Shown in pieces: positions 1 through 18,420 of a DNA stretch of 25,935 nucleotides. The notes beneath the pieces were generated by a model that was not told where the DNA came from, ran no database searches, and saw only the letters and a program-made list of their open reading frames with translations. The stretch's first letter is position 1. Each line of letters begins with the position of its first letter. Origin of the DNA: a virus (lineage: Duplodnaviria; Heunggongvirae; Uroviricota; Caudoviricetes); IMG/VR virus record IMGVR_UViG_2636415858_000002, positions 1 to 25,935 of that record. One strand, given 5' to 3'. The translations under genes and the position numbers were made by a program.

Positions 1-375
<375 letters not shown>

Positions 376-713
376 CTGATAAAAGCGCCCTGTACTGGTT
401 AGCAATAGCAAATTTACTCCCAGCTGCTCTGATTTCAAGAAAGCTGTACACCTCCCTTATGCCTATATTTTTAACCGGAACACCACCAAAGTATTCACTT
501 ATGATTTTCAACCTCTGGTTGTGTCTTTTCATGGTGTTTGTGCTTAATTGTCTACGCTCTATTTCATTTCTGAAATTTAATATCAGCTCGCAGAATAATG
601 TTACGCTATTACCTTTTATTCTATCCAGTAAGCTTATATGTTGCGTGGATAATAATTCCATATTTGCCGCAATAGCCTCATTAACTGCAATTCTTTTGTC
701 TCTTCCGATTCCA
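376..713 (-). pseudogene. int: lambda-type tyrosine integrase, N-terminal fragment cut at both ends by IS elements
   Basis: Minus-strand translation GIGRDKRIAVNEAIAANMELLS...NSVTLFCELILNFRNEI parallels lambda Int GLGRDRRIAITEAIQANIELFS...NSVTLHSWLDRYEKIL (recalled); bounded by IS1 at 714 and IS911 at 375. Confidence 0.55.
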
Positions 714-728
714 GGTAATGACTCCAAC

Positions 729-1232
729 TTACTGATAGTGTTTTATGTTCAGATAATGCCCGATGACCTTGTCATGCAGCTCCACCGATTTTGAGAACGA
801 CAGTGACTTCCGTCCCAGCCTTGCCAGATGTTGTCTCAGATTCAGATTATGTCGCTCAATGCGCTGAGTGTAACGCTTGCTGATAACGTGCAGCTTTCCC
901 TTCAGGCGTGATTCATACAGCGGCCAGCCATCCGTCATCCATACCACGACCTCAAAGGCCGACAGCAGGCTCAGAAGACGCTCCAGTGTGGCCAGAGTGC
1001 GTTCACCGAAGACGTGCGCCACAACCGTCCTCCGTATCCTGTCATACGCGTAAAACAGCCAGCGCTGACGTGATTTAGCACCGACGTAGCCCCACTGTTC
1101 GTCCATTTCAGCGCAGACAATCACATCACTGCCCGGTTGTATGCGCGAGGTTACCGACTGCGGCCTGAGTTTTTTAAGTGACGTAAAACCGTGTTGAGGC
1201 CAACGCCCATAATGCGTGCACTGGCGCGACAT
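729..1232 (-). CDS. insB: IS1 InsB frame (normally expressed as InsAB fusion by -1 frameshift)
   Basis: 167-aa ORF overlapping insA end in the -1 frame, typical IS1 organisation. Confidence 0.85.
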
Positions 1233-1426
1233 CCGACGCCATTCATGGCCATATCAATGATTTTCTGGTGCGTACCGGGCTGAGAGGCGGTGTAAGTGAA
1301 CTGTAGTTGCCATGTTTTACGGCAATGAGAGCAGAGATAGCGCTGATGTCCGGCAGTGCTTTTGCCGTTACGCACCACGCCTTCAGTAGCGGAGCAGGAA
1401 GGACATCTGATGGAAATGGAAGCCAC
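1151..1426 (-). CDS. insA: IS1 InsA
   Basis: 91-aa [45 protein letters not shown]..., zinc-finger/HTH protein of IS1. Confidence 0.9.
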
Positions 1427-1778
1427 GCAAGCACCTTAAAATCACCATCATACACTAAATCAGTAAGTTGGCAGCATTACCCCATTGCTGGCATAAATTC
1501 AGTTTCGAATATTCAGTTAATTAAAGTTCGTGTGCCATCTTGTCTTTTTCGGCACAAGCTGCACCGCAATATTTTCGTTTCTTTCTGGCAATCATGTTTC
1601 CATGCATATAAATAAGCTCGCCAGTAAAAGCTTTTTCAGGTAAAAACTGTTTATTGCAGAGATGGTAATCACATTGTATTAAATCCGGGTCACCTTTTTG
1701 CTGGAGAATTTTTCTGATTCTCCACAGCCATTTTTTAATCCCGGTATGACTGATGGTCTGCCTGAGGTGGTTCTTTTT

Positions 1779-2597
1779 TTAAGCAGCCATCTGATGATAT
1801 TTTTCCCTGAAGGCTGCCGGGGAGATATTCCCCAGACGAGAGTGACGACGCTGACGATTGTAGAAAATCTCAATGTATTCCCGTATTACTGAGATGGCTT
1901 CATCCCGGTTATTAAAATGATAGTGGCTCAGGCTCTCATTTTTCAGCGTTCCCCAGAAGCTTTCCATCGGAGCGTTGTCGTAACAGTGACCTTTACGCGA
2001 CATTGATGTTTTCAGACCAGACTGCTCCTGTATGACCCGGTAATCGTATGCGCAGTACTGTGAACCTCGATCAGAGTGGTGGATTAGCCCGGCAGGTGGG
2101 CGCTGGCTCCTGAGCGCCATAAACAGGGCTTTACCTGTCAGCTCTTTTGTCATGCGCTCTCCCATGGCGTAGCCGACAATTTCGCACGTATAAACATCTT
2201 TGATGCCAGCGAGGTACAACCATCCCTCCTGTGTGGCAACATACGTCAGGTCCGCCACCCAGACCTGATTTGGTGCTGTAGGAGCGAACGTCTGGTTCAG
2301 CAGATTTGGCGCAACTGGCAGATTGTGGTTCGGGTTCGTAGTCGCTCTGAACTTGCGTTTCTGCTTACAGCGTAGCCTTAGCTCCTTACGAAGACGTGCC
2401 AGTCGGTCACGACCAACGATGATGCCATTCTCTGCCAGCTCCGTCTGGAGCCGCCGGGTTCCATATGTTTCGCGAGTGCGGATATGTGCCACCTTAATCT
2501 CCAGTTTTAGCCGCTCATCACTTTGTTTTCTGTCTGAGGGTTCATGCTGTACCCAGTTGTAATAACCGCTCCTGGATACACCAAATACCTGACACAT
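1779..2597 (-). CDS. IS600 OrfB transposase catalytic frame (DDE)
   Basis: 272-aa ORF MCQVFGVSRSGYYNW...; one substitution (SHYHF vs SHYRF) relative to the other three copies. Confidence 0.85.
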   Translation of the reverse strand: MCQVFGVSRSGYYNWVQHEPSDRKQSDERLKLEIKVAHIRTRETYGTRRLQTELAENGIIVGRDRLARLRKELRLRCKQKRKFRATTNPNHNLPVAPNLLNQTFAPTAPNQVWVADLTYVATQEGWLYLAGIKDVYTCEIVGYAMGERMTKELTGKALFMALRSQRPPAGLIHHSDRGSQYCAYDYRVIQEQSGLKTSMSRKGHCYDNAPMESFWGTLKNESLSHYHFNNRDEAISVIREYIEIFYNRQRRHSRLGNISPAAFREKYHQMAA

Positions 2598-2646
2598 CGC
2601 TTCAATGGGAAATTGTTGTCGCCATTGTTCGATTAACGCGTATTTT

Positions 2647-2934
2647 TCAGCGACTCCTGTGCAAAATACGCTGTTGCTTTTTTAATATATCTCGCTCAAG
2701 GCGAGCTTCATTTAACGCCTTACGCAGTTGCAGAATTTCAGATTCCAGTTCAGCCACCGTGCGGGAACCAGGAGTACCGAGCCCTTTTCTGGCGGCGGTA
2801 ACCCATTGTCCTAAAGTGCCTTCAGGAAGGGATAATCGGGAAGCGCCTTCACTGATCGAAAGTTGATTTTCAAGAACCGTTCTGACAGCTTCGGCTTTGA
2901 ACTCTTTAGAGTAACGTTGGTTTTTTCTGCTCAT
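2647..2934 (-). CDS. IS600 OrfA, 95-aa variant (ends KKQQRILHRSR)
   Basis: ORF-track protein; differs from the 100-aa form only after the poly-A run. Confidence 0.8.
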   Translation of the reverse strand: MSRKNQRYSKEFKAEAVRTVLENQLSISEGASRLSLPEGTLGQWVTAARKGLGTPGSRTVAELESEILQLRKALNEARLERDILKKQQRILHRSR

Positions 2935-2998
2935 TATTAGCTCCTTCTGATGCCATTCTATTTCAGGAAGGAGTGTCCGTTAAACTCAGGCTACCTCA

Positions 2999-3187
2999 AT
3001 CTTCTCTTATTTTGAAATACAGATTCGTCAGATAAGTCAGAAGCCCCAGAAGCAGACTTCCCAGCACACCAATCGCAGCCCACTGTGATGGACTGACCTG
3101 ATCCAACCACTGCAAAAACCAGTAGCCGGCACTGCCGGCGGAGGTGCCGTAGGCAATGCCCGTTGAAATTTTGTCCATGGATTTCAT
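2999..3187 (-). pseudogene. phage-21-type class II holin (S21/EssD-like), truncated at C-terminus by IS600
   Basis: [63 protein letters not shown]; dual-start M-K-S-M motif; GGAGGTGA RBS; stop codon supplied by the IS600 terminus at 2996..2998. Confidence 0.75.
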
Positions 3188-3348
3188 AGCCTCACCTCCG
3201 CAAATAACGGATGGCGTAGTTTTACACTGAGAAATGAAAGGGATTTGAAAAGAAAAAAACGCAAAAGCGGGCGAAACGATATATACAGTAAGGAAAGCAC
3301 TCTATCCAACAAACCACCCACAGTTAATCGGAATAAAAGCAGAGTGCT

Positions 3349-3420
3349 TATGAATGATCGCACGCCCGAAGGTTAGTATTTCTGCACAGCAATTTTGCAA
3401 AAAAAGGCGATCATTCATAA
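3349..3420. repeat. 14-bp perfect inverted repeat (ttatgaatgatcgc / gcgatcattcataa) with 44-bp spacer
   Basis: Read directly; lies between tRNA-Gly and the holin start. Confidence 0.6.
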
Positions 3421-3479
3421 CTTAAACGTCTTTCAGTCACTCCGGGATTTCCCATCATCGCAGACTGAAAGACTCTGAC

Positions 3480-3554
<75 letters not shown>

Positions 3555-3557
3555 ATA

Positions 3558-3633
<76 letters not shown>

Positions 3634-3635
3634 GC

Positions 3636-3712
3636 TGGCCCACCACCGAGGACTCGAACCTCGCACCGTCAACTTAGAAGGTTGATGCTCTATCCGGATG
3701 AGCTAGTGGTGG
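3636..3712 (-). tRNA. tRNA-Arg (anticodon UCU), atypical C1-G72 acceptor end; phage-type
   Basis: CCACCACTAGCTCATCCGGATAGAGCATCAACCTTCTAAGTTGACGGTGCGAGGTTCGAGTCCTCGGTGGTGGGCCA; anticodon loop CTTCTAA, T-loop TTCGAGT; manual fold only. Confidence 0.55.
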
Positions 3713-3716
3713 TTGG

Positions 3717-3790
3717 TGGCCCTTGCTGGACTTGAACCAGCGACCTGGCGATTATGAGTCGCTCGCTCTGACCAACTGAGCTAAAGGGCC
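3717..3790 (-). tRNA. tRNA with CAU anticodon (Ile2/lysidine-type, ileX-like; elongator Met not excluded)
   Basis: GGCCCTTTAGCTCAGTTGGTCAGAGCGAGCGACTCATAATCGCCAGGTCGCTGGTTCAAGTCCAGCAAGGGCCACCA; resembles E. coli ileX as recalled. Confidence 0.65.
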
Positions 3791-3799
3791 GGAGGCAGA

Positions 3800-3828
3800 A
3801 TAATAACCATATGTCATCACATCTGCAA
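3800..3828 (-). promoter_or_regulatory. sigma70-like promoter candidate for the tRNA cluster (-35 TTGCAG, 17-bp spacer, -10 TATTAT)
   Basis: Motifs read on the minus strand; -10 ends about 9 nt upstream of the first tRNA 5' end. Confidence 0.3.
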
Positions 3829-3877
3829 ACTCATCTGACCACCAGCACGTTTAACGTCCTGTGCCGTTTTTCAGGTA

Positions 3878-3900
3878 TAAAAAAACCCGCATAAAGCGGG
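3878..3900 (-). terminator. intrinsic terminator candidate (stem cccgc/gcggg followed by 7 U on minus strand)
   Basis: Plus strand aaaaaaacccgcataaagcggg; short GC stem with U-tract on the minus strand. Confidence 0.4.
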
Positions 3901-4320
3901 CTCTTTCAAATGTCCATGTGAAGTGGTCAACAAAAACTGGCCACCGAGTTAGAGTTTTTCCAGTATCGATTTTCCGATTCGTTTGGGGGTAACCCACCGT
4001 TATATTCGTGCGGTCTTAGTGCGCTGTAATATCCAACGATATAGTCCGTTATGGCGTGAGCTGCCTCGCTGGGTAATGCTGCCAACTTACTGATTTAGTG
4101 TATGATGGTGATTTTAAGGTGCTTGCGTGGCTTCCATTTCCATCAGATGTCCTTCCTGCTCCGCTACTGAAGGCGTGGTGCGTAACGGCAAAAGCACTGC
4201 CGGACATCAGCGCTATCTCTGCTCTCATTGCCGTAAAACATGGCAACTACAGTTCACTTACACTGCCTCTCAGCCCGGTACGCACCAGAAAATCATTGAT
4301 ATGGCCATGAATGGCGTCGG

Positions 4321-5872
<1,552 letters not shown>

Positions 5873-6017
5873 TGGAGCACCTGTGTTGTTCTGAGGTGAG
5901 CATATCACCTCTGTTCAGGTGGCCAAATTCAGTGTGCCACTTCAGGTGCCGAACCTTCCTCCGGATATAATCTGTGATTCCCCAATCAACAGAACCAGAG
6001 GAGGTTCGGCATAAACA

Positions 6018-6440
6018 TCAATGCACAACGACAGAATCGTCGGACGACCCACCACCGCTGAAATGTGCTTTCCGGTAAACGGCCTGAACTGCGTCATCAT
6101 GCGCATCAATTGCCGTACTCAACGCTTCCTGCGCCGCCAGTAATGCACGGCGTTCCAGGGTATCGAAGATACAGAGTCGGTGACGCAGCTCACGCGGAAG
6201 AATTGCCAGAACCGCAGGGATCAGTTTCTGAATTTTCTCCCTTTGCGCTTTCGTTTCACCTTTCAACCAACGGTGATAGATATTCTGCTGATTGTTCCAG
6301 TCCTTGCCTGGTACCAGAGGCAATTCGCCGCCCCCCTGCCGCAGATATTCTTCAGTAATTGCGTTAGCGACCCACGCCTGCCCTTTTTCGGCTGCCAGGG
6401 CTAACAGCACTGATTCGATGTGCTCATGCCTGATTTTCAT
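6018..6440 (-). CDS. ydaT: ydaT-like prophage protein (Rac-type CII-like/toxin-like)
   Basis: 140-aa ORF MKIRHEHIESVLLALAAEKGQAW...; resembles YdaT as recalled (MKIKHEHI... start); overlaps the upstream cro-like gene by 17 nt. Confidence 0.55.
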   Translation of the reverse strand: MKIRHEHIESVLLALAAEKGQAWVANAITEEYLRQGGGELPLVPGKDWNNQQNIYHRWLKGETKAQREKIQKLIPAVLAILPRELRHRLCIFDTLERRALLAAQEALSTAIDAHDDAVQAVYRKAHFSGGGSSDDSVVVH

Positions 6441-6651
6441 GAATCACCTTCCCAGGTCGTTTTGCCTTACGATATTCGTCATAAACTTTGGGGTCGTACT
6501 GAAGTTCCCCGCCAGATGCCTCTTGCAGGCGCATCGCGCGGCCTTCAGGAACCAGTTCCCCCCATGCAGCAATGCTTGCCAGCCTAACTCCTGCGGCATT
6601 GGCAAGCTTTGTTTTGCTGCCAAAAAACGCTATAGCATCAATTTTCAACAT
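6424..6651 (-). CDS. Cro/YdaS-like small HTH regulator
   Basis: 75-aa ORF with HTH-like region KTKLANAAGVRLASIAAWG; AGGAG RBS 6 nt upstream; divergent from the repressor gene. Confidence 0.6.
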   Translation of the reverse strand: MLKIDAIAFFGSKTKLANAAGVRLASIAAWGELVPEGRAMRLQEASGGELQYDPKVYDEYRKAKRPGKVIHENQA

Positions 6652-6658
6652 ATCGAGC

Positions 6659-6678
6659 TCCTTAGATTTTCCTAAGGA
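6659..6678. promoter_or_regulatory. operator-like palindrome tccttag-N6-ctaagga between divergent cro-like and repressor genes
   Basis: Perfect 7-bp inverted arms read directly; sits between the cro-like start (6651) and repressor start (6728). Confidence 0.4.
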
Positions 6679-6727
6679 AACTAGATCGTAGAGAAACCTA
6701 AGTCAAGAAAGATTAGAATTCCCTAAT

Positions 6728-7135
6728 ATGAAAAACGAAACCTTCGGTGCTCGCCTCTTACATAGGCGTAAAAAATTAAAACTGTCTCAGGCCGCATTAG
6801 GTAAGCTGGTCAAAGTGGCTCACGTAACAATTTCTCAATGGGAAAGAGATGAAACACAGCCGGCGGGGAAAAGATTATTCGCACTGAGCCAAGCGCTTCA
6901 GTGCTCACCGACTTGGCTTCTTTTTGGGGATGAAGATAAACAACCAGGCGAACCGATCCCGGATAATCAGCCAGCCATTCTGACAGAAGATCAAAAAGAG
7001 TTACTTCAACTGTTCGACGCACTGCCTGAGTCAGAGCAAAAGGCCCTGTTGTCAGAGATGCGTGCTCGAGTTGAAAATTTCAACAAACTTTTTGAAGAAC
7101 TACTCAAAACTCGCAAAAGAAGCGCAAACAAATAA
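6728..7135 (+). CDS. CI-like prophage repressor (XRE-family HTH N-domain with C-terminal extension)
   Basis: 135-aa ORF; HTH segment LKLSQAALGKLVKVAHVTISQWERDE; no obvious SD, possibly leaderless like lambda cI. Confidence 0.65.
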   Translation: MKNETFGARLLHRRKKLKLSQAALGKLVKVAHVTISQWERDETQPAGKRLFALSQALQCSPTWLLFGDEDKQPGEPIPDNQPAILTEDQKELLQLFDALPESEQKALLSEMRARVENFNKLFEELLKTRKRSANK

Positions 7136-7337
7136 TCCCCTTTTTTCTCCACACCCTGTAATAAAAAGCACAAACTTTCAAACACTTGTGTTTTTTACAT
7201 CAAAAAAACTTAGGTTTTTATACATAAAATCTTGACTCCACGTCTTAGGTTATTCTAAATTTCATTCATCAAGACACCGCACGGTGTTCTCAGCAAACAG
7301 TTCCACTACCCCGGCGTTAAGGGGAAATGAGGTCAGC

Positions 7338-7490
7338 ATGGATACTATCGATCTTGGCAACAACGAATCCCTAGTGTGTGGCGTGTTTCCCAATCAGGAC
7401 GGCACATTCACCGCCATGACGTATACCAAAAGCAAAACGTTTAAAACCGAAGCTGGCGCACGTCGCTGGCTTGCCAAAAATACCAGCTAA
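7338..7490 (+). CDS. ydfA: small prophage protein, YdfA-like (DUF1391-type)
   Basis: MDTIDLGNNESLVCGVFPNQDGTFTAMTYTKSKTFKTEAGARRWLAKNTS with GAGG RBS; start taken at internal Met of the 68-aa track ORF. Confidence 0.55.
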   Translation: MDTIDLGNNESLVCGVFPNQDGTFTAMTYTKSKTFKTEAGARRWLAKNTS

Positions 7491-7577
7491 TCCATTTATT
7501 GGATTAATTCAATATTCTCGCTGTAGAGGTATAGTGAGGTGTACTGGCAATAGCGGACACTACCATTTGTTCTTTTT

Positions 7578-8396
7578 TTAAGCAGCCATCTGATGATATT
7601 TTTCCCTGAAGGCTGCCGGGGAGATATTCCCCAGACGAGAGTGACGACGCTGACGATTGTAGAAAATCTCAATGTATTCCCGTATTACTGAGATGGCTTC
7701 ATCCCGGTTATTAAAACGATAGTGGCTCAGGCTCTCATTTTTCAGCGTTCCCCAGAAGCTTTCCATCGGAGCGTTGTCGTAACAGTGACCTTTACGCGAC
7801 ATTGATGTTTTCAGACCAGACTGCTCCTGTATGACCCGGTAATCGTATGCGCAGTACTGTGAACCTCGATCAGAGTGGTGGATTAGCCCGGCAGGTGGGC
7901 GCTGGCTCCTGAGCGCCATAAACAGGGCTTTACCTGTCAGCTCTTTTGTCATGCGCTCTCCCATGGCGTAGCCGACAATTTCGCACGTATAAACATCTTT
8001 GATGCCAGCGAGGTACAACCATCCCTCCTGTGTGGCAACATACGTCAGGTCCGCCACCCAGACCTGATTTGGTGCTGTAGGAGCGAACGTCTGGTTCAGC
8101 AGATTTGGCGCAACTGGCAGATTGTGGTTCGGGTTCGTAGTCGCTCTGAACTTGCGTTTCTGCTTACAGCGTAGCCTTAGCTCCTTACGAAGACGTGCCA
8201 GTCGGTCACGACCAACGATGATGCCATTCTCTGCCAGCTCCGTCTGGAGCCGCCGGGTTCCATATGTTTCGCGAGTGCGGATATGTGCCACCTTAATCTC
8301 CAGTTTTAGCCGCTCATCACTTTGTTTTCTGTCTGAGGGTTCATGCTGTACCCAGTTGTAATAACCGCTCCTGGATACACCAAATACCTGACACAT
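7578..8396 (-). CDS. IS600 OrfB
   Basis: 272-aa DDE transposase frame. Confidence 0.9.
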   Translation of the reverse strand: MCQVFGVSRSGYYNWVQHEPSDRKQSDERLKLEIKVAHIRTRETYGTRRLQTELAENGIIVGRDRLARLRKELRLRCKQKRKFRATTNPNHNLPVAPNLLNQTFAPTAPNQVWVADLTYVATQEGWLYLAGIKDVYTCEIVGYAMGERMTKELTGKALFMALRSQRPPAGLIHHSDRGSQYCAYDYRVIQEQSGLKTSMSRKGHCYDNAPMESFWGTLKNESLSHYRFNNRDEAISVIREYIEIFYNRQRRHSRLGNISPAAFREKYHQMAA

Positions 8397-8431
8397 CGCT
8401 TCAATGGGAAATTGTTGTCGCCATTGTTCGA

Positions 8432-8734
8432 TTAACGCGTATTTTTCAGCGACTCCTGTGCAAAATACGCTGTTGCTTTTTTTAATATATCTCGCTCAAG
8501 GCGAGCTTCATTTAACGCCTTACGCAGTTGCAGAATTTCAGATTCCAGTTCAGCCACCGTGCGGGAACCAGGAGTACCGAGCCCTTTTCTGGCGGCGGTA
8601 ACCCATTGTCCTAAAGTGCCTTCAGGAAGGGATAATCGGGAAGCGCCTTCACTGATCGAAAGTTGATTTTCAAGAACCGTTCTGACAGCTTCGGCTTTGA
8701 ACTCTTTAGAGTAACGTTGGTTTTTTCTGCTCAT
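8432..8734 (-). CDS. IS600 OrfA (100 aa)
   Basis: MSRKNQRYSKEFKAEAVRTVLENQLSISEGASRLSLPEGTLGQW...KKATAYFAQESLKNTR. Confidence 0.9.
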   Translation of the reverse strand: MSRKNQRYSKEFKAEAVRTVLENQLSISEGASRLSLPEGTLGQWVTAARKGLGTPGSRTVAELESEILQLRKALNEARLERDILKKATAYFAQESLKNTR

Positions 8735-8857
8735 TATTAGCTCCTTCTGATGCCATTCTATTTCAGGAAGGAGTGTCCGTTAAACTCAGGCTACCTCAGC
8801 CTGAGGGCAGGTGTAAAACAATAATCAAGCATGGGGTTCATATCCATAGCTCCATTT

Positions 8858-9403
8858 TTATTTTAAGGAAAGCAACTGCTCTACGGTCATGTTTTTAATT
8901 GCGCCCCGGTTTACAAGAGTCCAGCCCTGTTTTTCCAGATAAAACCGGAAAGTCTCCAGGGTACAGACCAGTGCGCCATCAGGAACGGTTTCGGTGAATT
9001 CGACATTGCCGAATTTGTCGAAGTGAACAACCAGAGTGCGACCATCACCCGGAATCATCTTGTCAGCAGGTGGGGTGTTATTCTGGCGCAGTTCGGCCTC
9101 CATGCGGTCGAACTCAGCAATGTAGGCTTCCTTGAATGTGGCGGCTTTTTTGCCCGTGAAGCCCATCACCAGGAAAACGAAGCCGTTTTTGGTGATTTGG
9201 TAGGCGTTATAAGAATTGCCGCGGTGTTCGAATTTAACCCGCGAAAAGTTGCTGGTTAAAAATAGTTCAGAACATTCGAAGGATTCTATTTTTTGAACAA
9301 CATGGTGATGCTGCTTGCCAAAAAACTCAGCAATCGAAATAGAAGTAGTGACGGCGCGACCATTTTCGATGGTTACGTCAGGGTGAGAAAGGGTAGTAGC
9401 CAT
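8858..9403 (-). CDS. rha: Rha-family phage regulatory protein
   Basis: Start MATTLSHPDVTIENGRAVTTSISIAEFFGKQHHHVVQKIESF... with GAGGA RBS; the longer track ORF (to 9697) is an in-frame non-coding extension. Confidence 0.7.
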   Translation of the reverse strand: MATTLSHPDVTIENGRAVTTSISIAEFFGKQHHHVVQKIESFECSELFLTSNFSRVKFEHRGNSYNAYQITKNGFVFLVMGFTGKKAATFKEAYIAEFDRMEAELRQNNTPPADKMIPGDGRTLVVHFDKFGNVEFTETVPDGALVCTLETFRFYLEKQGWTLVNRGAIKNMTVEQLLSLK

Positions 9404-9567
9404 AATGACATCCTCAAGTGATAAGTTAATTAACTCACCAGCAGAGGTGCTAATCTCATGGGTGGTGAGACGCACAGGGTTAGCACTACCGGTCACTCGA
9501 GAACCCGGCCAGCCTTGCGGCTGCCCCGCACGCCTCACCATAATTTGAATGTGGCTGTGCATTACGC

Positions 9568-9592
9568 ATAAAAAAACCGCTTCAGCGCGGTT
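9568..9592 (-). terminator. intrinsic terminator candidate (stem aaccgc/gcggtt, loop 6 nt, 7 U on minus strand)
   Basis: Plus strand ataaaaaaaccgcttcagcgcggtt. Confidence 0.45.
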
Positions 9593-9719
9593 ATGCGCTC
9601 GAGTAACTTTCGGGGTGCTAATCCCGGCACCCGTTTTATGAGGTGCAGGTGCACTATAATTCCACCCGTTCTGGTTTTCAATAGCTACATTCAACATTTT
9701 CTCTTTCCTTTCATCACCG

Positions 9720-9874
9720 AAGTGAATTTTGTGATGCGGTGCCTAGTGCCTCCAGGTGACGTTAACCAGTTAACAATTACAGTCGGCTTTCCCACCCAAA
9801 CCAATAAGGACTAACATGACTTTTAACTGTGCCGCGTGCGCTTAGCCGCATTCACCGCATCACAAAATTCACTT
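9720..9874. repeat. 22-bp perfect inverted repeats (aagtgaattttgtgatgcggtg / caccgcatcacaaaattcactt) flanking a 111-bp core
   Basis: Read directly: left arm 9720..9741, right arm 9853..9874; core contains near-palindrome gttaaccagttaac. Confidence 0.7.
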
Positions 9875-10141
9875 TAAAAAGGGCGGACATCAGCCAGCAA
9901 TTAAACCGATGCCGCCAACTGGTACTTCACACAGCAATGTCGTTATTTACAACCGGAAGCGCACTCCCACCATTTAAATTTCACAGACAAGACCGACTCT
10001 TTATGAATACCGGAAATGCGCCTTCGTGTTGTGCCCGGTTTTATTTCACCACCTCCGGGCTTTGGTGGCCTCGGCTATGAGGTAGCCTGAGTTTAACGGA
10101 CACTCCTTCCTGAAATAGAATGGCATCAGAAGGAGCTAATA

Positions 10142-10444
10142 ATGAGCAGAAAAAACCAACGTTACTCTAAAGAGTTCAAAGCCGAAGCTGTCAGAACGGT
10201 TCTTGAAAATCAACTTTCGATCAGTGAAGGCGCTTCCCGATTATCCCTTCCTGAAGGCACTTTAGGACAATGGGTTACCGCCGCCAGAAAAGGGCTCGGT
10301 ACTCCTGGTTCCCGCACGGTGGCTGAACTGGAATCTGAAATTCTGCAACTGCGTAAGGCGTTAAATGAAGCTCGCCTTGAGCGAGATATATTAAAAAAAG
10401 CAACAGCGTATTTTGCACAGGAGTCGCTGAAAAATACGCGTTAA
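10142..10444 (+). CDS. IS600 OrfA (100 aa)
   Basis: Identical protein to 8432..8734. Confidence 0.9.
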   Translation: MSRKNQRYSKEFKAEAVRTVLENQLSISEGASRLSLPEGTLGQWVTAARKGLGTPGSRTVAELESEILQLRKALNEARLERDILKKATAYFAQESLKNTR

Positions 10445-10479
10445 TCGAACAATGGCGACAACAATTTCCCATTGAAGCG

Positions 10480-11298
10480 ATGTGTCAGGTATTTGGTGTA
10501 TCCAGGAGCGGTTATTACAACTGGGTACAGCATGAACCCTCAGACAGAAAACAAAGTGATGAGCGGCTAAAACTGGAGATTAAGGTGGCACATATCCGCA
10601 CTCGCGAAACATATGGAACCCGGCGGCTCCAGACGGAGCTGGCAGAGAATGGCATCATCGTTGGTCGTGACCGACTGGCACGTCTTCGTAAGGAGCTAAG
10701 GCTACGCTGTAAGCAGAAACGCAAGTTCAGAGCGACTACGAACCCGAACCACAATCTGCCAGTTGCGCCAAATCTGCTGAACCAGACGTTCGCTCCTACA
10801 GCACCAAATCAGGTCTGGGTGGCGGACCTGACGTATGTTGCCACACAGGAGGGATGGTTGTACCTCGCTGGCATCAAAGATGTTTATACGTGCGAAATTG
10901 TCGGCTACGCCATGGGAGAGCGCATGACAAAAGAGCTGACAGGTAAAGCCCTGTTTATGGCGCTCAGGAGCCAGCGCCCACCTGCCGGGCTAATCCACCA
11001 CTCTGATCGAGGTTCACAGTACTGCGCATACGATTACCGGGTCATACAGGAGCAGTCTGGTCTGAAAACATCAATGTCGCGTAAAGGTCACTGTTACGAC
11101 AACGCTCCGATGGAAAGCTTCTGGGGAACGCTGAAAAATGAGAGCCTGAGCCACTATCGTTTTAATAACCGGGATGAAGCCATCTCAGTAATACGGGAAT
11201 ACATTGAGATTTTCTACAATCGTCAGCGTCGTCACTCTCGTCTGGGGAATATCTCCCCGGCAGCCTTCAGGGAAAAATATCATCAGATGGCTGCTTAA
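10480..11298 (+). CDS. IS600 OrfB
   Basis: Identical protein to 7578..8396; frame is -1 relative to orfA across the A7 run at 10393..10399. Confidence 0.9.
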   Translation: MCQVFGVSRSGYYNWVQHEPSDRKQSDERLKLEIKVAHIRTRETYGTRRLQTELAENGIIVGRDRLARLRKELRLRCKQKRKFRATTNPNHNLPVAPNLLNQTFAPTAPNQVWVADLTYVATQEGWLYLAGIKDVYTCEIVGYAMGERMTKELTGKALFMALRSQRPPAGLIHHSDRGSQYCAYDYRVIQEQSGLKTSMSRKGHCYDNAPMESFWGTLKNESLSHYRFNNRDEAISVIREYIEIFYNRQRRHSRLGNISPAAFREKYHQMAA

Positions 11299-11343
11299 AA
11301 AAAGAACAAATGGTAGTGTCCGCTATTGCCAGTACACCTCATG

Positions 11344-14841: not shown

Positions 14842-15261
14842 ATGGAACAGAAAGCATTATCTGCAGAACCCCGCAGATCATTTTCAAATGAGTTTAAACT
14901 TCAAATGGTTAAACTGGCTTCACAACCAGGAGCCTCTGTTGCCCGTATTGCCCGGGAACACGATATCAATGATAACCTGCTGTTCAAATGGCTCAGGCTC
15001 TGGCAGAACGAAGGGCGCATATCGCGGCGTCTTCCGGTAACAACCTCTTCTGACACTGGCGTTGAATTATTACCTGTGGAGATAACGCCGGATGAGCCGA
15101 AAGAACCTGTGGCTGCTCTTACTTCGTCTTTATCTACTCAGACTACAGTTAGTGCCAGCTCCTGCAAGGTGGAGTTCCGTCACGGTAACATGACGCTGGA
15201 AAATCCTTCACCAGAGCTGCTCACAGTGTTGATCCGTGAACTGACCGGGAGGGGACGATGA
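14842..15261 (+). CDS. IS66-family Orf1 (HTH accessory protein)
   Basis: 139-aa ORF, first of the three-gene IS66 arrangement. Confidence 0.7.
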   Translation: MEQKALSAEPRRSFSNEFKLQMVKLASQPGASVARIAREHDINDNLLFKWLRLWQNEGRISRRLPVTTSSDTGVELLPVEITPDEPKEPVAALTSSLSTQTTVSASSCKVEFRHGNMTLENPSPELLTVLIRELTGRGR

Positions 15262-15608
15262 TCTCACTCCCGTCAGGCACCCGCATCTGGCTCGTTGCTG
15301 GGATAACCGATATGCGTAAGTCTTTCAACGGGCTGGGTGAACAGGTACAGCATGTGCTGAATGATAATCCCTTCTCCGGTCACCTGTTCATCTTCCGTGG
15401 CCGACGGGGTGACATGATTAAAATCCTGTGGGCTGATGCTGATGGTCTGTGCCTGTTCACCAGACGCCTGGAGGAAGGCCAGTTTATCTGGCCTGCTGTG
15501 CGTGACGGCAAGGTATCCATTACCCGCTCGCAACTGGCAATGCTCCTCGATAAGCTGGACTGGCGTCAGCCAAAAACATCCCGCCTTAATGCACTGACAA
15601 TGTTGTAA
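15258..15608 (+). CDS. IS66-family Orf2 (TnpB-type accessory protein)
   Basis: 116-aa ORF MISLPSGTRIWLVAGITDMRKSFNGL... Confidence 0.75.
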   Translation: MISLPSGTRIWLVAGITDMRKSFNGLGEQVQHVLNDNPFSGHLFIFRGRRGDMIKILWADADGLCLFTRRLEEGQFIWPAVRDGKVSITRSQLAMLLDKLDWRQPKTSRLNALTML

Positions 15609-15638
15609 AAATGTCATGGCCGGATTATAAAAACGGCC

Positions 15639-17231
15639 ATGAATCAAAAATACCTCATTCGCATTGCAGAACTGGAATGCCAGCTCCGTCAGAAAGACCA
15701 GCAACTGAGTCTGGTTGAAGAGACGGAGGCCTTCCTGCGCTCTGCACTGGCCCGCGCCGAAGAAAAGATCGAAGAAGATGAACGGGAAATAGAACATCTG
15801 CGGGCTCAGATAGAAAAACTGCGCCGGATGCTGTTCGGTACCCGTTCTGAAAAACTGCGTCGTGAAGTTGAACAGGCTGAGGCCCTGCTGAAACAACGCG
15901 AACAGGACAGTGATCGTTACAGTGGGCGGGAAGACGATCCGCAGGTTCCCCGCCAGTTGCGACAGTCTCGTCATCGTCGCCCGTTACCGGAGCATCTGCC
16001 CCGCGAAATAAATCGCCTGGAGCCAGAAGAAAGCTGTTGCCCGGAGTGTGGCGGTGAGCTGGATTATCTGGGGGAAGTCAGCGCAGAACAACTGGAACTG
16101 GTGAGCAGCGCTCTGAAAGTGATCCGCACAGAACGGGTAAAAAAAGCCTGTACAAAATGTGACTGCATCGTTGAAGCACCGGCACCATCCCGTCCGATAG
16201 AGCGTGGTATCGCGGGCCCGGGGTTACTTGCCCGCGTGTTAACGGGAAAATACTGCGAACACCTGCCACTGTATCGTCAGAGTGAAATTTTTGCCCGTCA
16301 GGGTGTCGAACTGAGCCGTGCATTACTCTCCAACTTGGTTGACGCGTGCTGCCAGTTAATGACGCCGCTGAATGATGCTCTGTACCGTTATGTAATGAAC
16401 AGCCGCAAAGTTCACACTGATGACACACCAGTAAAAGTGCTGGCACCGGGCAGGAAGAAGGCGAAAACAGGATATATCTGGACGTATGTCCGGGATGACA
16501 GGAATGCCGGTTCGCCAGAGCCTCCGGCGGTCTGGTTCGCCTACTCACCGGACCATCAGGGTAAACATCCGGAGCAGCACCTTAGTCCCTTCCGGGGTAT
16601 CCTGCAGGCAGATGCGTTTAATGGTTACGATCGGCTGTTCAGTGCCGAACGAGAAGGCGGCGCGTTGACGGAAGCAGGATGCTGGGCTCATGCGCGGCGC
16701 AAAGTCCACGATGTATATATCAGTACCAAAAGCGCGACAGCGGAAGAAGCCCTGAAACTAATCGGTGAGCTGTACGCCATCGAGCACGAAATACGCGGGT
16801 TGCCGGTGTCTGAACGCCTGGCGGTCAGGCAAATGCAGAGTAAACCGCTACTGACTTCCCTGTATAAGCTGATGCAGGAGAAAGAACACACGTTATCGAA
16901 AAAATGCCGTCTGAGAGATGCGTTCCGGTATATCAGGAAGCACTGGGTTGCGTTGTGCAACTTCAGTGATGATGGTCTGGCTGAGGCGGATAATAATGCC
17001 GCGGAAAGAGCGCTTCGTGCAGTCTGTCTCGGAAAGAAAAACTTTATGTTCTTCGGCAGCGATCACGGTGGAGAGCGTGGTGCGCTACTGTACGGGCTGA
17101 TCGGCACCTGCCGACTGAACGGTATCGATCCGGAAGCGTATCTGCGCTATATCCTGAGCGTACTGCCGGAATGGCCTTCCAACCGTGTTGACGAACTCCT
17201 GCCATGGAACGTAGCACTCACCAATAAATAA
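15639..17231 (+). CDS. IS66-family transposase (Orf3)
   Basis: 530-aa ORF with N-terminal coiled coil, CPECGG zinc-finger-like motif and DDE-type core. Confidence 0.8.
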
Positions 17232-17262
17232 GCGTCAATACGGTGCTCCGTTGACGCTTACC

Positions 17263-18006
17263 CATGATACTGATGTAGTCACGCTTTATCGTTTTCACGA
17301 AGCTCTCTGCTATTCCGTTACTCTCCGGACTCCGCACCGCCGTGTTCTTCGGTTCAAGTCCCAACATCCGGGCGAACTGGCGTGCTTCATTAGCCCGGTA
17401 GCATGAACCATTATCCGTCAGCCACTCCACTGGAGACGACGGAAGATCGTTGCCGAAGCGGCGTTCCACCGCTCCCAGCATGACGTCCTGTACTGTTTCA
17501 CTGTTGAAGCCGCCGGTAGTCACCGCCCAGTGCAGTGCCTCACGATCACAGCAGTCCAGCGCGAACGTGACACGCAGTCTCTCTCCGTTATCACAGCAGA
17601 ACTCGAACCCGTCAGAGCACCATCGCTGATTGCTTTCTTTCACGGCCACTCTGCCTGTATGTGCCCGTTTCGATGGCGGTACAGCAGGTTTTCGCTCAAG
17701 CAACAGCGCATTCTGGCGCATGATCCGGTAAACACGTTTGGCATTGATCGCAGGCATACCATCAAGTTCTGCCTGTCTGCGAAGCAGCGCCCATACCCGA
17801 CGATAACCATACGTGGGCAGCTCTCCGATAACATGGTGTATACGGAGAAGCACATCCGTATCATCAGTGTGACGACTGCGGCGGCCATCCATCCAGTCAT
17901 CGGTTCGTCTGAGAATGACGTGCAACTGCGCACGCGACACCCGGAGACAACGGCTGACTAAGCTTACTCCCCATCCCCGGGCAATAAGGGCGCGTGCGCT
18001 ATCCAC
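17263..18006 (-). pseudogene. insD: IS2 OrfB transposase, C-terminally truncated
   Basis: Matches InsD up to ...KRDYISIM, then reads into the IS66-family element end. Confidence 0.8.
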
Positions 18007-18329
18007 TTTTTTGCCCGTCCATATTCAACGGCTTCTTTGAGGAGTTCATTTTCCATCGTTTTCTTGCCGAGCAGGCGCTGGAGTTCTTTAATCTGCTTCA
18101 TGGCGGCAGCAAGTTCAGAGGCAGGAACAACCTGTTCTCCGGCGGCCACAGCAGTAAGACTTCCTTCCTGGTATTGCTTACGCCAGAGAAATAACTGGCT
18201 GGCTGCTACACCATGTTGCCGGGCAACGAGGGAGACCGTCATCCCCGGTTCAAAGCTCTGCTGAACAATTGCGATCTTTTCCTGTGTGGTACGCCGTCTG
18301 CGTTTCTCCGGCCCTAAGACATCAATCAT
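17964..18329 (-). CDS. insC: IS2 OrfA
   Basis: [56 protein letters not shown]... Confidence 0.85.
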
Positions 18330-18420
18330 CTGTACTCCAATGACTAGTCTAAAAACTAGTATTAAGACTATCACTTATTTAAGTGATACTGGTTGTCTGG
18401 AGATTCAGGGGGCCAGTCTA

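Follow-up and report, generated by a model that had tools for sequence, protein, structure and literature searches.

Immunity switches that combine a repressor with a Cro-like and a CII-like regulator are already well described, and among those closest to the locus studied here are the ones carried by the Qin and Rac prophages of Escherichia coli K-12. In Qin, DicA and DicC behave like CI and Cro, and dicBp is repressed 22-fold by DicA (bioRxiv 10.1101/2023.04.14.536235). The experimentally validated DicA operator Oc (TTGTTAGTCATAACTAACAA) has TTAG-N6-CTAA as its core; a change of CTAA to CTCA abolishes DicA binding, and two operators predicted from sequence in the dicA promoter region, Om and Oa, are not bound by DicA in vivo (PMC3441716). 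The dicF and dicB genes of the controlled operon are a feature of K-12 Qin and not general to the DicA/DicC family. In Rac (racR-ydaS-ydaT) the third gene encodes YdaT, a transcription factor that is equivalent to CII and harms the cell when overexpressed (PMC9986795, PMC11879457, PMC5917428). Through a YdaT-box this protein turns on racR by way of a reverse promoter, and it feeds into the RcsA regulon of K-12 by activating rcsA (PMC11879457). The repressor of phage P22, C2, is a 216-aa protein with a RecA-sensitive C-terminal domain (bioRxiv 10.1101/2023.04.14.536235).

The locus that we compare with these systems lies in a decayed prophage of Shigella boydii ATCC 9210 (CP011511.1), represented by the whole 25,935-nt (25.9-kb) stretch of DNA that was analysed, here called the window. 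Positions 5945-7534 of the window very probably constitute, by analogy where mechanism is concerned, a complete lysis/lysogeny immunity switch of a Qin/DicA-type lambdoid prophage joined to a Rac-type ydaT and left as an island bounded by insertion sequences. The first-pass annotation had described a repressor gene divergent from a cro-like gene and ydaT and followed by a ydfA-like gene, all four uninterrupted, and this layout was borne out: the four proteins align over their full length with their homologues, no frameshift was found, and the family assignments, unambiguous from curated families and annotated genomes, all exceed curated cutoffs.

The repressor gene (6728-7135, plus strand) encodes a 135-aa helix-turn-helix (HTH) protein, short and of the P22 C2 type, that matches the NCBIfam model for DicA (PRK09706) at 236.1 bits (cutoff 101) over model positions 1-135 of 135 and Pfam HTH_3 at 51.8 bits. 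It is 61% identical to K-12 DicA and 99.3% identical to the corresponding protein of E. coli FDAARGOS_944. Its N-terminal domain resembles that of P22 C2 (structure 1adr, 1e-21), but it differs from C2 in having a short, helical C-terminus of the DicA type. Whereas HTH_3, YdaT and DUF1391 were all found in the module with Pfam, the peptidase S24 domain that had been looked for along with them was absent from the repressor, for which Pfam at E values up to 0.1 returned HTH families only; the protein is therefore not a self-cleaving repressor of the CI/LexA type. A single substitution separates it from its closest relatives, which have alanine where it has threonine at position 127, and the exact protein with A127T occurs on only four contigs among those read; the change is restricted to this lineage. 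Beyond the gene an AU-rich hairpin (7162-7197) lies between an A tract and a U tract. With only two G-C pairs and a predicted folding energy of −9.6 kcal/mol (z = −3.5), it may act as a weak terminator between the repressor gene and the ydfA promoter.

The divergent gene (6424-6651, minus strand, 75 aa) encodes the Cro analogue, with scores of 158.3 bits for NCBIfam NF007282 (DicC; cutoff 130) and 49.7 bits, also above cutoff, for Pfam P22_Cro. The protein is 75% identical to K-12 DicC, 100% identical to that of E. coli FDAARGOS_944 and similar to the P22 Cro structure 1rzs (2.4e-7). It had been annotated as cro/ydaS-like with a strong ribosome-binding site; the Cro half of that label holds, as does the binding site (AAGGAG, 6 nt before the ATG), but there is no BLASTP match to YdaS and the YdaS_toxin profile (PF15943), at 20.4 bits, stays below its cutoff of 30. 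The gene overlaps ydaT by 17 nt.

The ydaT gene (6018-6440, minus strand) encodes a 140-aa transcription factor of the Rac type, equivalent to CII, with 44.4 bits for PF06254, a match to phrog_163 ('CII-like activator', 1.2e-36) and structural relatives in PDB 8bt1/3c4r. It is 96.4% identical to K-12 YdaT over 140 of 140 aa, the codons differing at 28 synonymous and 5 non-synonymous sites, and it keeps the DNA-binding residues H56 and R57 and the oligomerization-helix residues L107 and A110, all of which were mutated in the study of the Rac protein (PMC11879457). The core of a YdaT-box, TGATT-N6-AATCA, spans the ydaT start codon (6431-6446; GTGATTCATGAAAATCAG on the gene strand) and is the one match in the 25.9 kb, where 0.06 would be expected; the Rac box, ATGATTCATGAAAATCAA, is placed identically with respect to the ATG (PMC11879457). 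The 'toxin-like activity' raised in the first-pass annotation is, by analogy with Rac, better understood as harm done by a CII-like transcription factor once it is derepressed than as the action of a toxin (PMC11879457, PMC5917428).

Three copies of the DicA operator core TTAG-N6-CTAA are present in the 25.9 kb, all inside the module (0.24 expected; none of 100 shuffled sequences reached three), and each has a counterpart at the corresponding place in K-12 Qin; none was found in the Rac locus or in a non-DicA prophage locus. The first predicted operator, O1 (6659-6678; TCCTTAGATTTTCCTAAGGA), is a perfect 7+6+7 inverted repeat in the position of K-12 Oc (position 4869 of the Qin locus, L002), where it adjoins the −10 region and overlaps the start region and Shine–Dalgarno sequence of the dicC-like gene. 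The promoter predicted for that gene (6678-6705, minus strand) consists of −35 TTGACT (6705-6700), a 17-nt spacer and −10 TAGTTT (6683-6678); it was read from the sequence and is absent from the consensus scan list at 9/12, and it has the layout of the K-12 dicC promoter (TTGACT, 17 nt, TATCTT, then Oc). The second site, O2 (6712-6727; ATTAGAATTCCCTAAT; L002 4919), is operator-like, abuts the ATG of the repressor gene and holds a −10-like TAGAAT (6714-6719). If Om or Oa corresponds to it, some TTAG-N6-CTAA sites may lack a function, and on sequence the role of O2 is uncertain. The promoter predicted for ydfA (7232-7261, plus strand; TTGACT, 18 nt, TAAATT; 9/12 in the promoter scan) corresponds to dicBp of K-12 and has the third predicted operator, O3 (7245-7258; TTAGGTTATTCTAA), within its spacer and −10; the K-12 promoter is built in the same way (TTGACC, operator, TAATCT), with its operator at L002 5415 between dicA and ydfA. 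The 76-nt region between the divergent genes differs at one position, outside the operator cores, from its relatives in fuller prophages, and promoters, operators, Shine–Dalgarno sequence and YdaT-box are likewise unchanged relative to them.

The fourth gene (7338-7490, plus strand, 50 aa) belongs to the ydfA/ydaF (DUF1391) family (PF07151, 102.7 bits; phrog_751, 3.1e-36) and is the first and sole surviving gene of an early operon of the leftward type. Its product is 90% identical to both YdfA and YdaF of K-12 and differs at one amino acid from a 50-aa variant in E. coli 214-4. The gene is nested in a longer GTG reading frame (7284-7490), and the DUF1391 profile begins at the ATG at 7338. A three-way DNA alignment of ydfA diverges near 7468. 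That the C-terminus had been altered or truncated by IS600 was considered and rejected: IS600 starts only at 7535 and the match, 97% to many E. coli prophages for the 50-aa variant plus 44 nt past the stop, runs to 7534.

As first annotated, IS911 and IS600 bracket the module. On the left an IS911 remnant (4840-5944, minus strand), 99.8% identical to an annotated 'IS3-like element IS911 family transposase', abuts it at 5944 and is itself cut at 4839/4840 by IS1, of which two inverted copies are present (714-1482 and 4071-4839). Between IS911 and the 3' end of ydaT are 73 nt (5945-6017) with a weak hairpin (5992-6007, minus strand) that gives a terminator-like match; we rejected the idea that this is IS debris, because it matches the prophage of E. 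coli 214-4 (L004, 3830-3897) at about 96% and is thus a natural prophage spacer, beyond which the replication genes are gone. On the right a 1264-nt IS600 (7535-8798, minus strand), which matches annotated IS600 copies in E. coli, has inserted at a TAG target 44 nt past the ydfA stop and severed the rest of the operon. It is 100% identical to a second copy in inverted orientation (10078-11341); TAG stands at 7532-7534 and CTA at 10075-10077. The segment between the two copies (8799-10077, minus strand), formerly the downstream neighbour of ydfA, matches a comparison locus (L001, 9992-11269) in reverse orientation at 89.6%. It holds isrK-like and C4-like RNAs (Rfam RF01394, 68.5 bits; RF01695, 78.6 bits) and a Rha-domain gene (within 8858-9697; Phage_pRha, 89.7 bits), a candidate anti-repressor of the AnrP type comparable with the isrK-orf45-anrP locus (PMC4825925). 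The decay of this prophage is by IS insertion, deletion and inversion and not by point mutation.

Set against K-12 Qin, the module shares the DicA and DicC families, the divergent genes with an intergenic region of about 80 nt, a dicC that runs 17 nt into the gene after it, ydfA as first gene after the repressor, the three TTAG-N6-CTAA positions and the promoter/operator layout at the dicC and ydfA promoters. It differs in the degree of identity of the two regulators and in the outer operator bases, and in having a full ydaT where Qin has ydfX, whose resemblance to YdaT is weak and local, and the small ydfW ORF. Qin also keeps ydfB-ydfC-dicF-dicB downstream, whereas in Shigella IS600 cuts the operon after ydfA and neither DicF nor dicB is present: DicF has no Rfam match anywhere in the window, and when the module was searched for DicF, dicB or other RNA genes no Rfam match reached the gathering threshold, and hits at E values up to 1 were noise. 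The closest relative, a prophage beside ybhA in E. coli FDAARGOS_944/943, has all four genes, 97.8% identical as DNA, and is much fuller (replication, Q-region, lysis, rha, recE, xis, int), with rha/ydaE/recE in place of dicF/dicB. The PPompW prophages of Shiga-toxin-producing E. coli have homologous genes, annotated dicA/dicC, at 94%, and dicC-dicA of the same type occurs in 751 of 5426 complete E. coli genomes. Only the Shigella locus in this comparison has insertion sequences on both flanks and the isrK/C4/rha segment inverted. PADLOC returned generic HTH matches only and no known defence system for the module.

If the locus works as Qin and Rac do, the DicA-like protein would bind the TTAG-N6-CTAA operators as a dimer through its C2-type HTH and would repress both promoters. 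At O1 it would shut off the rightward dicC-ydaT transcript and would probably also activate its own weak, possibly leaderless, promoter, while at O3 it would shut off the leftward-type operon. With an identity of only 61% to K-12 DicA and outer operator bases TCC against TTG, the repressor can be assigned the specificity of DicA only tentatively. Were it lost or inactivated, the DicC-like protein and YdaT, as analogues of Cro and CII, would be made, and YdaT, bound at the box on its own start codon, would set off transcription in the direction of the repressor gene; a PRE-like reverse promoter was sought inside the dicC-like gene and nothing convincing was seen at consensus level. As the repressor is not RecA-cleavable, inactivation is presumably by an anti-repressor. 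In this it would be like the short repressors of the Gifsy type (GfoR/GftR, and DicA with Rem in Qin), which it resembles in its 135 aa, in lacking an S24 domain and in having an isrK-C4-Rha (AnrP-like) locus of the anti-repressor type as its ancestral downstream neighbour. It is unlike them in that tblastn finds no match to Rem in the window and in that the candidate Rha-domain protein has been uncoupled; the AnrP-like gene is now inverted and split from the module by IS600. With all that once lay downstream lost to IS911 on one side and to IS600 on the other, only dicC-ydaT and ydfA would be left under the control of the switch. We infer that the module is expressed and autoregulated and would be toxic on derepression, and residual immunity to homoimmune phages is plausible by the same analogy.

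Why such a module persists in a prophage so reduced is a separate question. It might have been kept as an addictive pair of repressor and toxic regulator, loss of the repressor derepressing YdaT, with or without the DicC-like protein, to lethal or filamenting effect, so that IS deletions taking the repressor alone would be counter-selected; such a cause of persistence would not conflict with an immunity switch. Expression of Rac YdaT leads to filamentation and death, partly via rcsA activation (PMC11879457), the essentiality of racR and dicA in K-12 is due entirely to the genes that they silence (PMC5917428), and the flanking deletions on either side end just outside the module, but deletion of the module as a whole would be harmless and the intact reading frames call for no special selection, long uninterrupted ORFs being the rule in every other IS-free block of the window. 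The first-pass annotation had singled out an intact module in a shattered prophage; intact it is, and its preservation is not unusual. The IS copies are mutually 100% identical, which points to recent decay with time for few point mutations, and the synonymous/non-synonymous differences from the closest relative (0/1 in dicA, 1/0 in dicC, 5/4 in ydaT) are too few to indicate purifying selection, so that we consider addiction a possible but rather unlikely reason for retention. The broader proposal that the switch has been kept and not merely spared, whether as an addiction unit or through domestication (immunity to the DicA-type prophages, which are common and include the PPompW type, or YdaT feeding host regulons such as that of RcsA), would explain why the IS deletions ended 73 nt and 44 nt short of the module, and we regard it as unlikely. 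That the module is a silent relic, unexpressed or without effect on the cell, its reading frames intact only through recent decay, seems to us improbable: a recent IS burst is indicated by the identical copies, IS elements with approximately set boundaries make up about 45% of the window, the neighbouring blocks are equally intact and A127T is confined to this lineage, but the unchanged regulatory sites speak against it and nothing predicts a silent repressor promoter.

That the module is of the Rac racR-ydaS-ydaT type, with RacR or a CI/S24-type repressor and ydaS as its cro-like gene, has next to no probability, for although ydaT, its place after a cro-like gene, the box across its start codon and a DUF1391 gene beyond the repressor (ydaF, with ydfA its equivalent in Qin) are all as in Rac, profile and BLASTP searches refute it for the repressor and cro-like genes, the former giving no BLASTP match to K-12 RacR at E values up to 10 and both being unrelated to RacR and YdaS, and the operators differ as well.

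The label is therefore corrected from a Rac-like racR/ydaS unit to a Qin-type DicA/DicC switch that carries a Rac-type ydaT and has every known cis element still in place, a result that matters little beyond annotation. Immunity and conditional essentiality are already established for Qin and Rac of K-12, and to confirm them here would carry known biology over to another strain without raising a new question: if the repressor is active, this Shigella strain could be immune to phages with the same operators, and the repressor gene could be conditionally essential because of YdaT.

The four uninterrupted ORFs described in the first-pass annotation for the immunity region (approximately 5945–7534) were all confirmed: ydaT (6018–6440, minus strand, 140 aa; YdaT PF06254 and PHROG 'CII-like activator'), a dicC-like, cro-like gene (6424–6651, minus strand, 75 aa; Pfam P22_Cro and NCBIfam 'DicC' at 158 bits, cutoff 130), a dicA-like repressor gene (6728–7135, plus strand, 135 aa; HTH_3 and, over the full length, NCBIfam 'transcriptional repressor DicA' at 236 bits, cutoff 101) and a ydfA-like gene (7338–7490, plus strand, 50 aa; DUF1391). 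The YdaT and DUF1391 families expected for the first and last of these were both matched, and the ribosome binding site and gene overlap proposed for the cro-like gene are present, as AAGGAG lies 6 nt 5′ of its ATG and 17 nt are shared with ydaT (both read from the sequence). The same annotation took the group for a Rac-like racR–ydaS–ydaT immunity unit with a CI-like repressor, of which the immunity module and the Rac-type ydaT stood but the racR and ydaS identities did not. When the proteins were compared directly with those of K-12, YdaT had 96% identity with its Rac namesake along its full 140-residue length. The repressor has 61% identity with Qin DicA and no similarity to RacR; the dicC-like protein, which shares 75% of its residues with DicC, has none to YdaS. 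For the DUF1391 protein the identity is 90% with YdfA and likewise with YdaF. A peptidase S24 domain was not detected in the repressor by the profile search. Sequence searches against solved structures gave a P22 C2-like N-terminal domain for the repressor (1e-21) and a match to P22 Cro for the dicC-like protein (2.4e-7), with 3c4r and 8bt1 as the nearest solved relatives of YdaT. Because of these profile, K-12 and structure matches a racR–ydaS unit was rejected; judged from its sequence, the module is a DicA/DicC switch of Qin type with a ydaT of Rac type, and its gene make-up relative to K-12 is a mosaic of Qin and Rac parts.

The K-12 DicA operator next to dicC (Oc, TTGTTAGTCATAACTAACAA) has been validated experimentally, and changing its CTAA to CTCA abolishes DicA binding (PMC3441716). 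Its core, TTAG-N6-CTAA, is found three times in the 25.9-kb window (6662, 6713 and 7245), always within the module; 0.24 occurrences would be expected in the window, and none of 100 shuffles gave three. The K-12 Qin locus likewise has exactly three in 10 kb at matching relative positions, one by dicC (Oc), one immediately adjoining the dicA start and one in the dicA–ydfA interval, and there is none in the Rac locus or in a prophage with a different repressor. O1, the predicted operator by the dicC-like gene (6659–6678), is a perfect 7+6+7 palindrome (TCCTTAGATTTTCCTAAGGA) directly following a promoter-like TTGACT-17-TAGTTT that is directed at this gene, a layout equal to that of the K-12 dicC promoter (TTGACT-17-TATCTT-Oc). 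O3, the predicted operator of the putative ydfA promoter, lies between its −35 (TTGACT) and −10 (TAAATT), a placement as at K-12 dicBp. The operator-like site O2 (6712–6727) abuts the dicA-like ATG and contains a −10-like TAGAAT ending 8 nt 5′ of that codon; since transcription would then begin at or close to the ATG and the dicA-like gene has no Shine–Dalgarno sequence, the layout of 6712–6728 suggests a leaderless repressor mRNA, like that of lambda cI from PRM, and the layout at K-12 dicA is similar. In the interval from the dicA-like stop to the ydfA promoter, an AU-rich hairpin with flanking A and U tracts (7162–7197; −9.6 kcal/mol, z = −3.5) may be a weak bidirectional terminator, which would meet read-out from the IS600 transposase genes directed at the module.

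In K-12, DicA acts as a repressor at dicC and at the dicB operon promoter and, from Oc, as an activator of its own gene, DicA and DicC acting like CI and Cro; it has no site for RecA cleavage, and the anti-repressor Rem relieves its repression (PMC3441716; bioRxiv 10.1101/2023.04.14.536235). YdaT is the CII equivalent, which in Rac binds its box and drives a reverse promoter toward the repressor gene; expressing YdaT is toxic and causes filamentation, in part via rcsA (PMC9986795; PMC11879457). Jobling regards such toxicity as regulator overexpression and not as a toxin function (PMC5917428). In Rac the YdaT-box reads ATGATTCATGAAAATCAA and its spacer includes the ydaT ATG (PMC11879457); here the box is retained as GTGATTCATGAAAATCAG. 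Its core TGATT-N6-AATCA has a single occurrence in the window, spanning the ydaT start, and the protein keeps H56/R57 (DNA binding) and L107/A110 (oligomerisation helix), residues mutated in the study of YdaT (PMC11879457). By analogy with K-12, the dicA-like repressor should keep dicC–ydaT and ydfA off, and derepression would allow the DicC-like protein and YdaT to be made. Neither Rem nor DicF or dicB was found in the window, and no specific defence-system model matched there.

The closest relative is a much fuller prophage beside ybhA in E. coli FDAARGOS_944 (97.8% DNA identity), against which the module shows zero indels, in keeping with the claim of unbroken reading frames. The two differ by one synonymous change in dicC, one non-synonymous change in dicA (A127T), five synonymous and four non-synonymous changes in ydaT, and 1 nt, outside the operator cores, in the 76-nt dicC–dicA intergenic region. 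At the end of ydfA a three-way alignment diverges near 7468; rewriting by IS600 was considered and rejected, because many E. coli prophages match the 50-aa variant together with the next 44 nt, up to 7534 (97%), and IS600 begins at 7535. Bracketing of the module by IS911 and IS600 was also upheld. The left border is formed by a truncated IS911, 99.8% identical to annotated copies, whose end at 5944 is separated from the ydaT stop by 73 nt of natural prophage spacer; on the right IS600 (7535–8798) starts 44 nt after ydfA. Four phage-borne tRNA genes are clustered at 3483–3790 (minus strand), as they are in the relative (1799–2109 of its locus), but the approximately 6 kb that separates them from ydaT in the relative, with replication, Q-region and other genes, is missing here and IS1 and IS911 stand in its place.

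A second, inverted IS600 (10078–11341) is 100% identical to the copy at 7535–8798, and the 1279 nt between them (8799–10077) match the E. coli relative in reverse orientation. TAG at 7532–7534 and its complement CTA at 10075–10077 resemble the two copies of a single 3-bp target duplication, separated by inversion through IS600–IS600 recombination; as the outer flank of the second IS600 has no matching duplication, a further rearrangement is suggested to have joined this copy to the tail genes. The inverted segment carries a Rha-domain gene as well as isrK-like and C4-like RNAs: the RNAs, C4 antisense RNA at 78.6 bits and isrK at 68.5 bits, are found at 9458–9646 (minus strand), within a 279-aa ORF (8858–9697, minus strand). 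They occupy its 5′ third, and the rest of the ORF is the Rha domain. A Pfam 'Phage_ASH' match to residues 14–105 of this ORF coincides with the RNA genes, and so may be translated RNA or an orf45 fusion and not a real protein domain. The arrangement is that of the Gifsy-1 isrK–orf45–anrP anti-repressor locus (PMC4825925), and the segment may be the former inducer arm of the DicA-like switch. Homologues of the isrK/C4 region are the dicF–dicB interval of K-12 Qin (80%; 6396–6592 of the Qin locus) and the kilS region of Rac (91%; 2249–2610 of the Rac locus). These prophage sRNA loci therefore seem to be variant occupants of a single conserved position in the leftward-type operon.

CP011511.1, listed as Shigella boydii ATCC 9210 in a published table (PMC6456863), is 100% identical to the window across 12.4 kb, and an ipaH-type NEL E3-ligase gene at 24124–25935 fits such an origin. 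This effector gene (minus strand; NEL E3 ligase at 253 bits with a type III secretion LRR) lies beside tail-fibre genes, on the margin of the prophage remnant. IS sequence makes up about 45% of the window (boundaries approximate), with elements within 1–5944, 14842–18400 and 20933–22196 among others, and comprises two copies of IS911 (one cut by IS1), two inverted copies of IS1, four of IS600 (one with a 1-nt indel that reduces orfA to 95 aa), an IS66-type element (ORFs of 139, 116 and 530 aa) and another IS3-family transposase (17218–18006). Each IS-free block holds long ORFs (tail genes of 673, 236 and 100 aa, tail-fibre genes and ipaH). The prophage has decayed recently, through insertion, deletion and inversion, and the survival of an unbroken 1.5-kb block therefore calls for no special explanation. 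Retention of an addiction type, with the repressor needed to silence YdaT, may have played a part but is not required. Of 5426 complete E. coli genomes, 751 have a match covering at least 80% of the dicC–dicA query, and PPompW prophage records annotate this type as dicA/dicC. The original observation is confirmed and its interpretation partly supported, in that this is an immunity module of DicA/DicC type with a repressor of other than S24 kind; the element belongs to a kind already known, and the module is not special within a prophage whose state of decay is ordinary.
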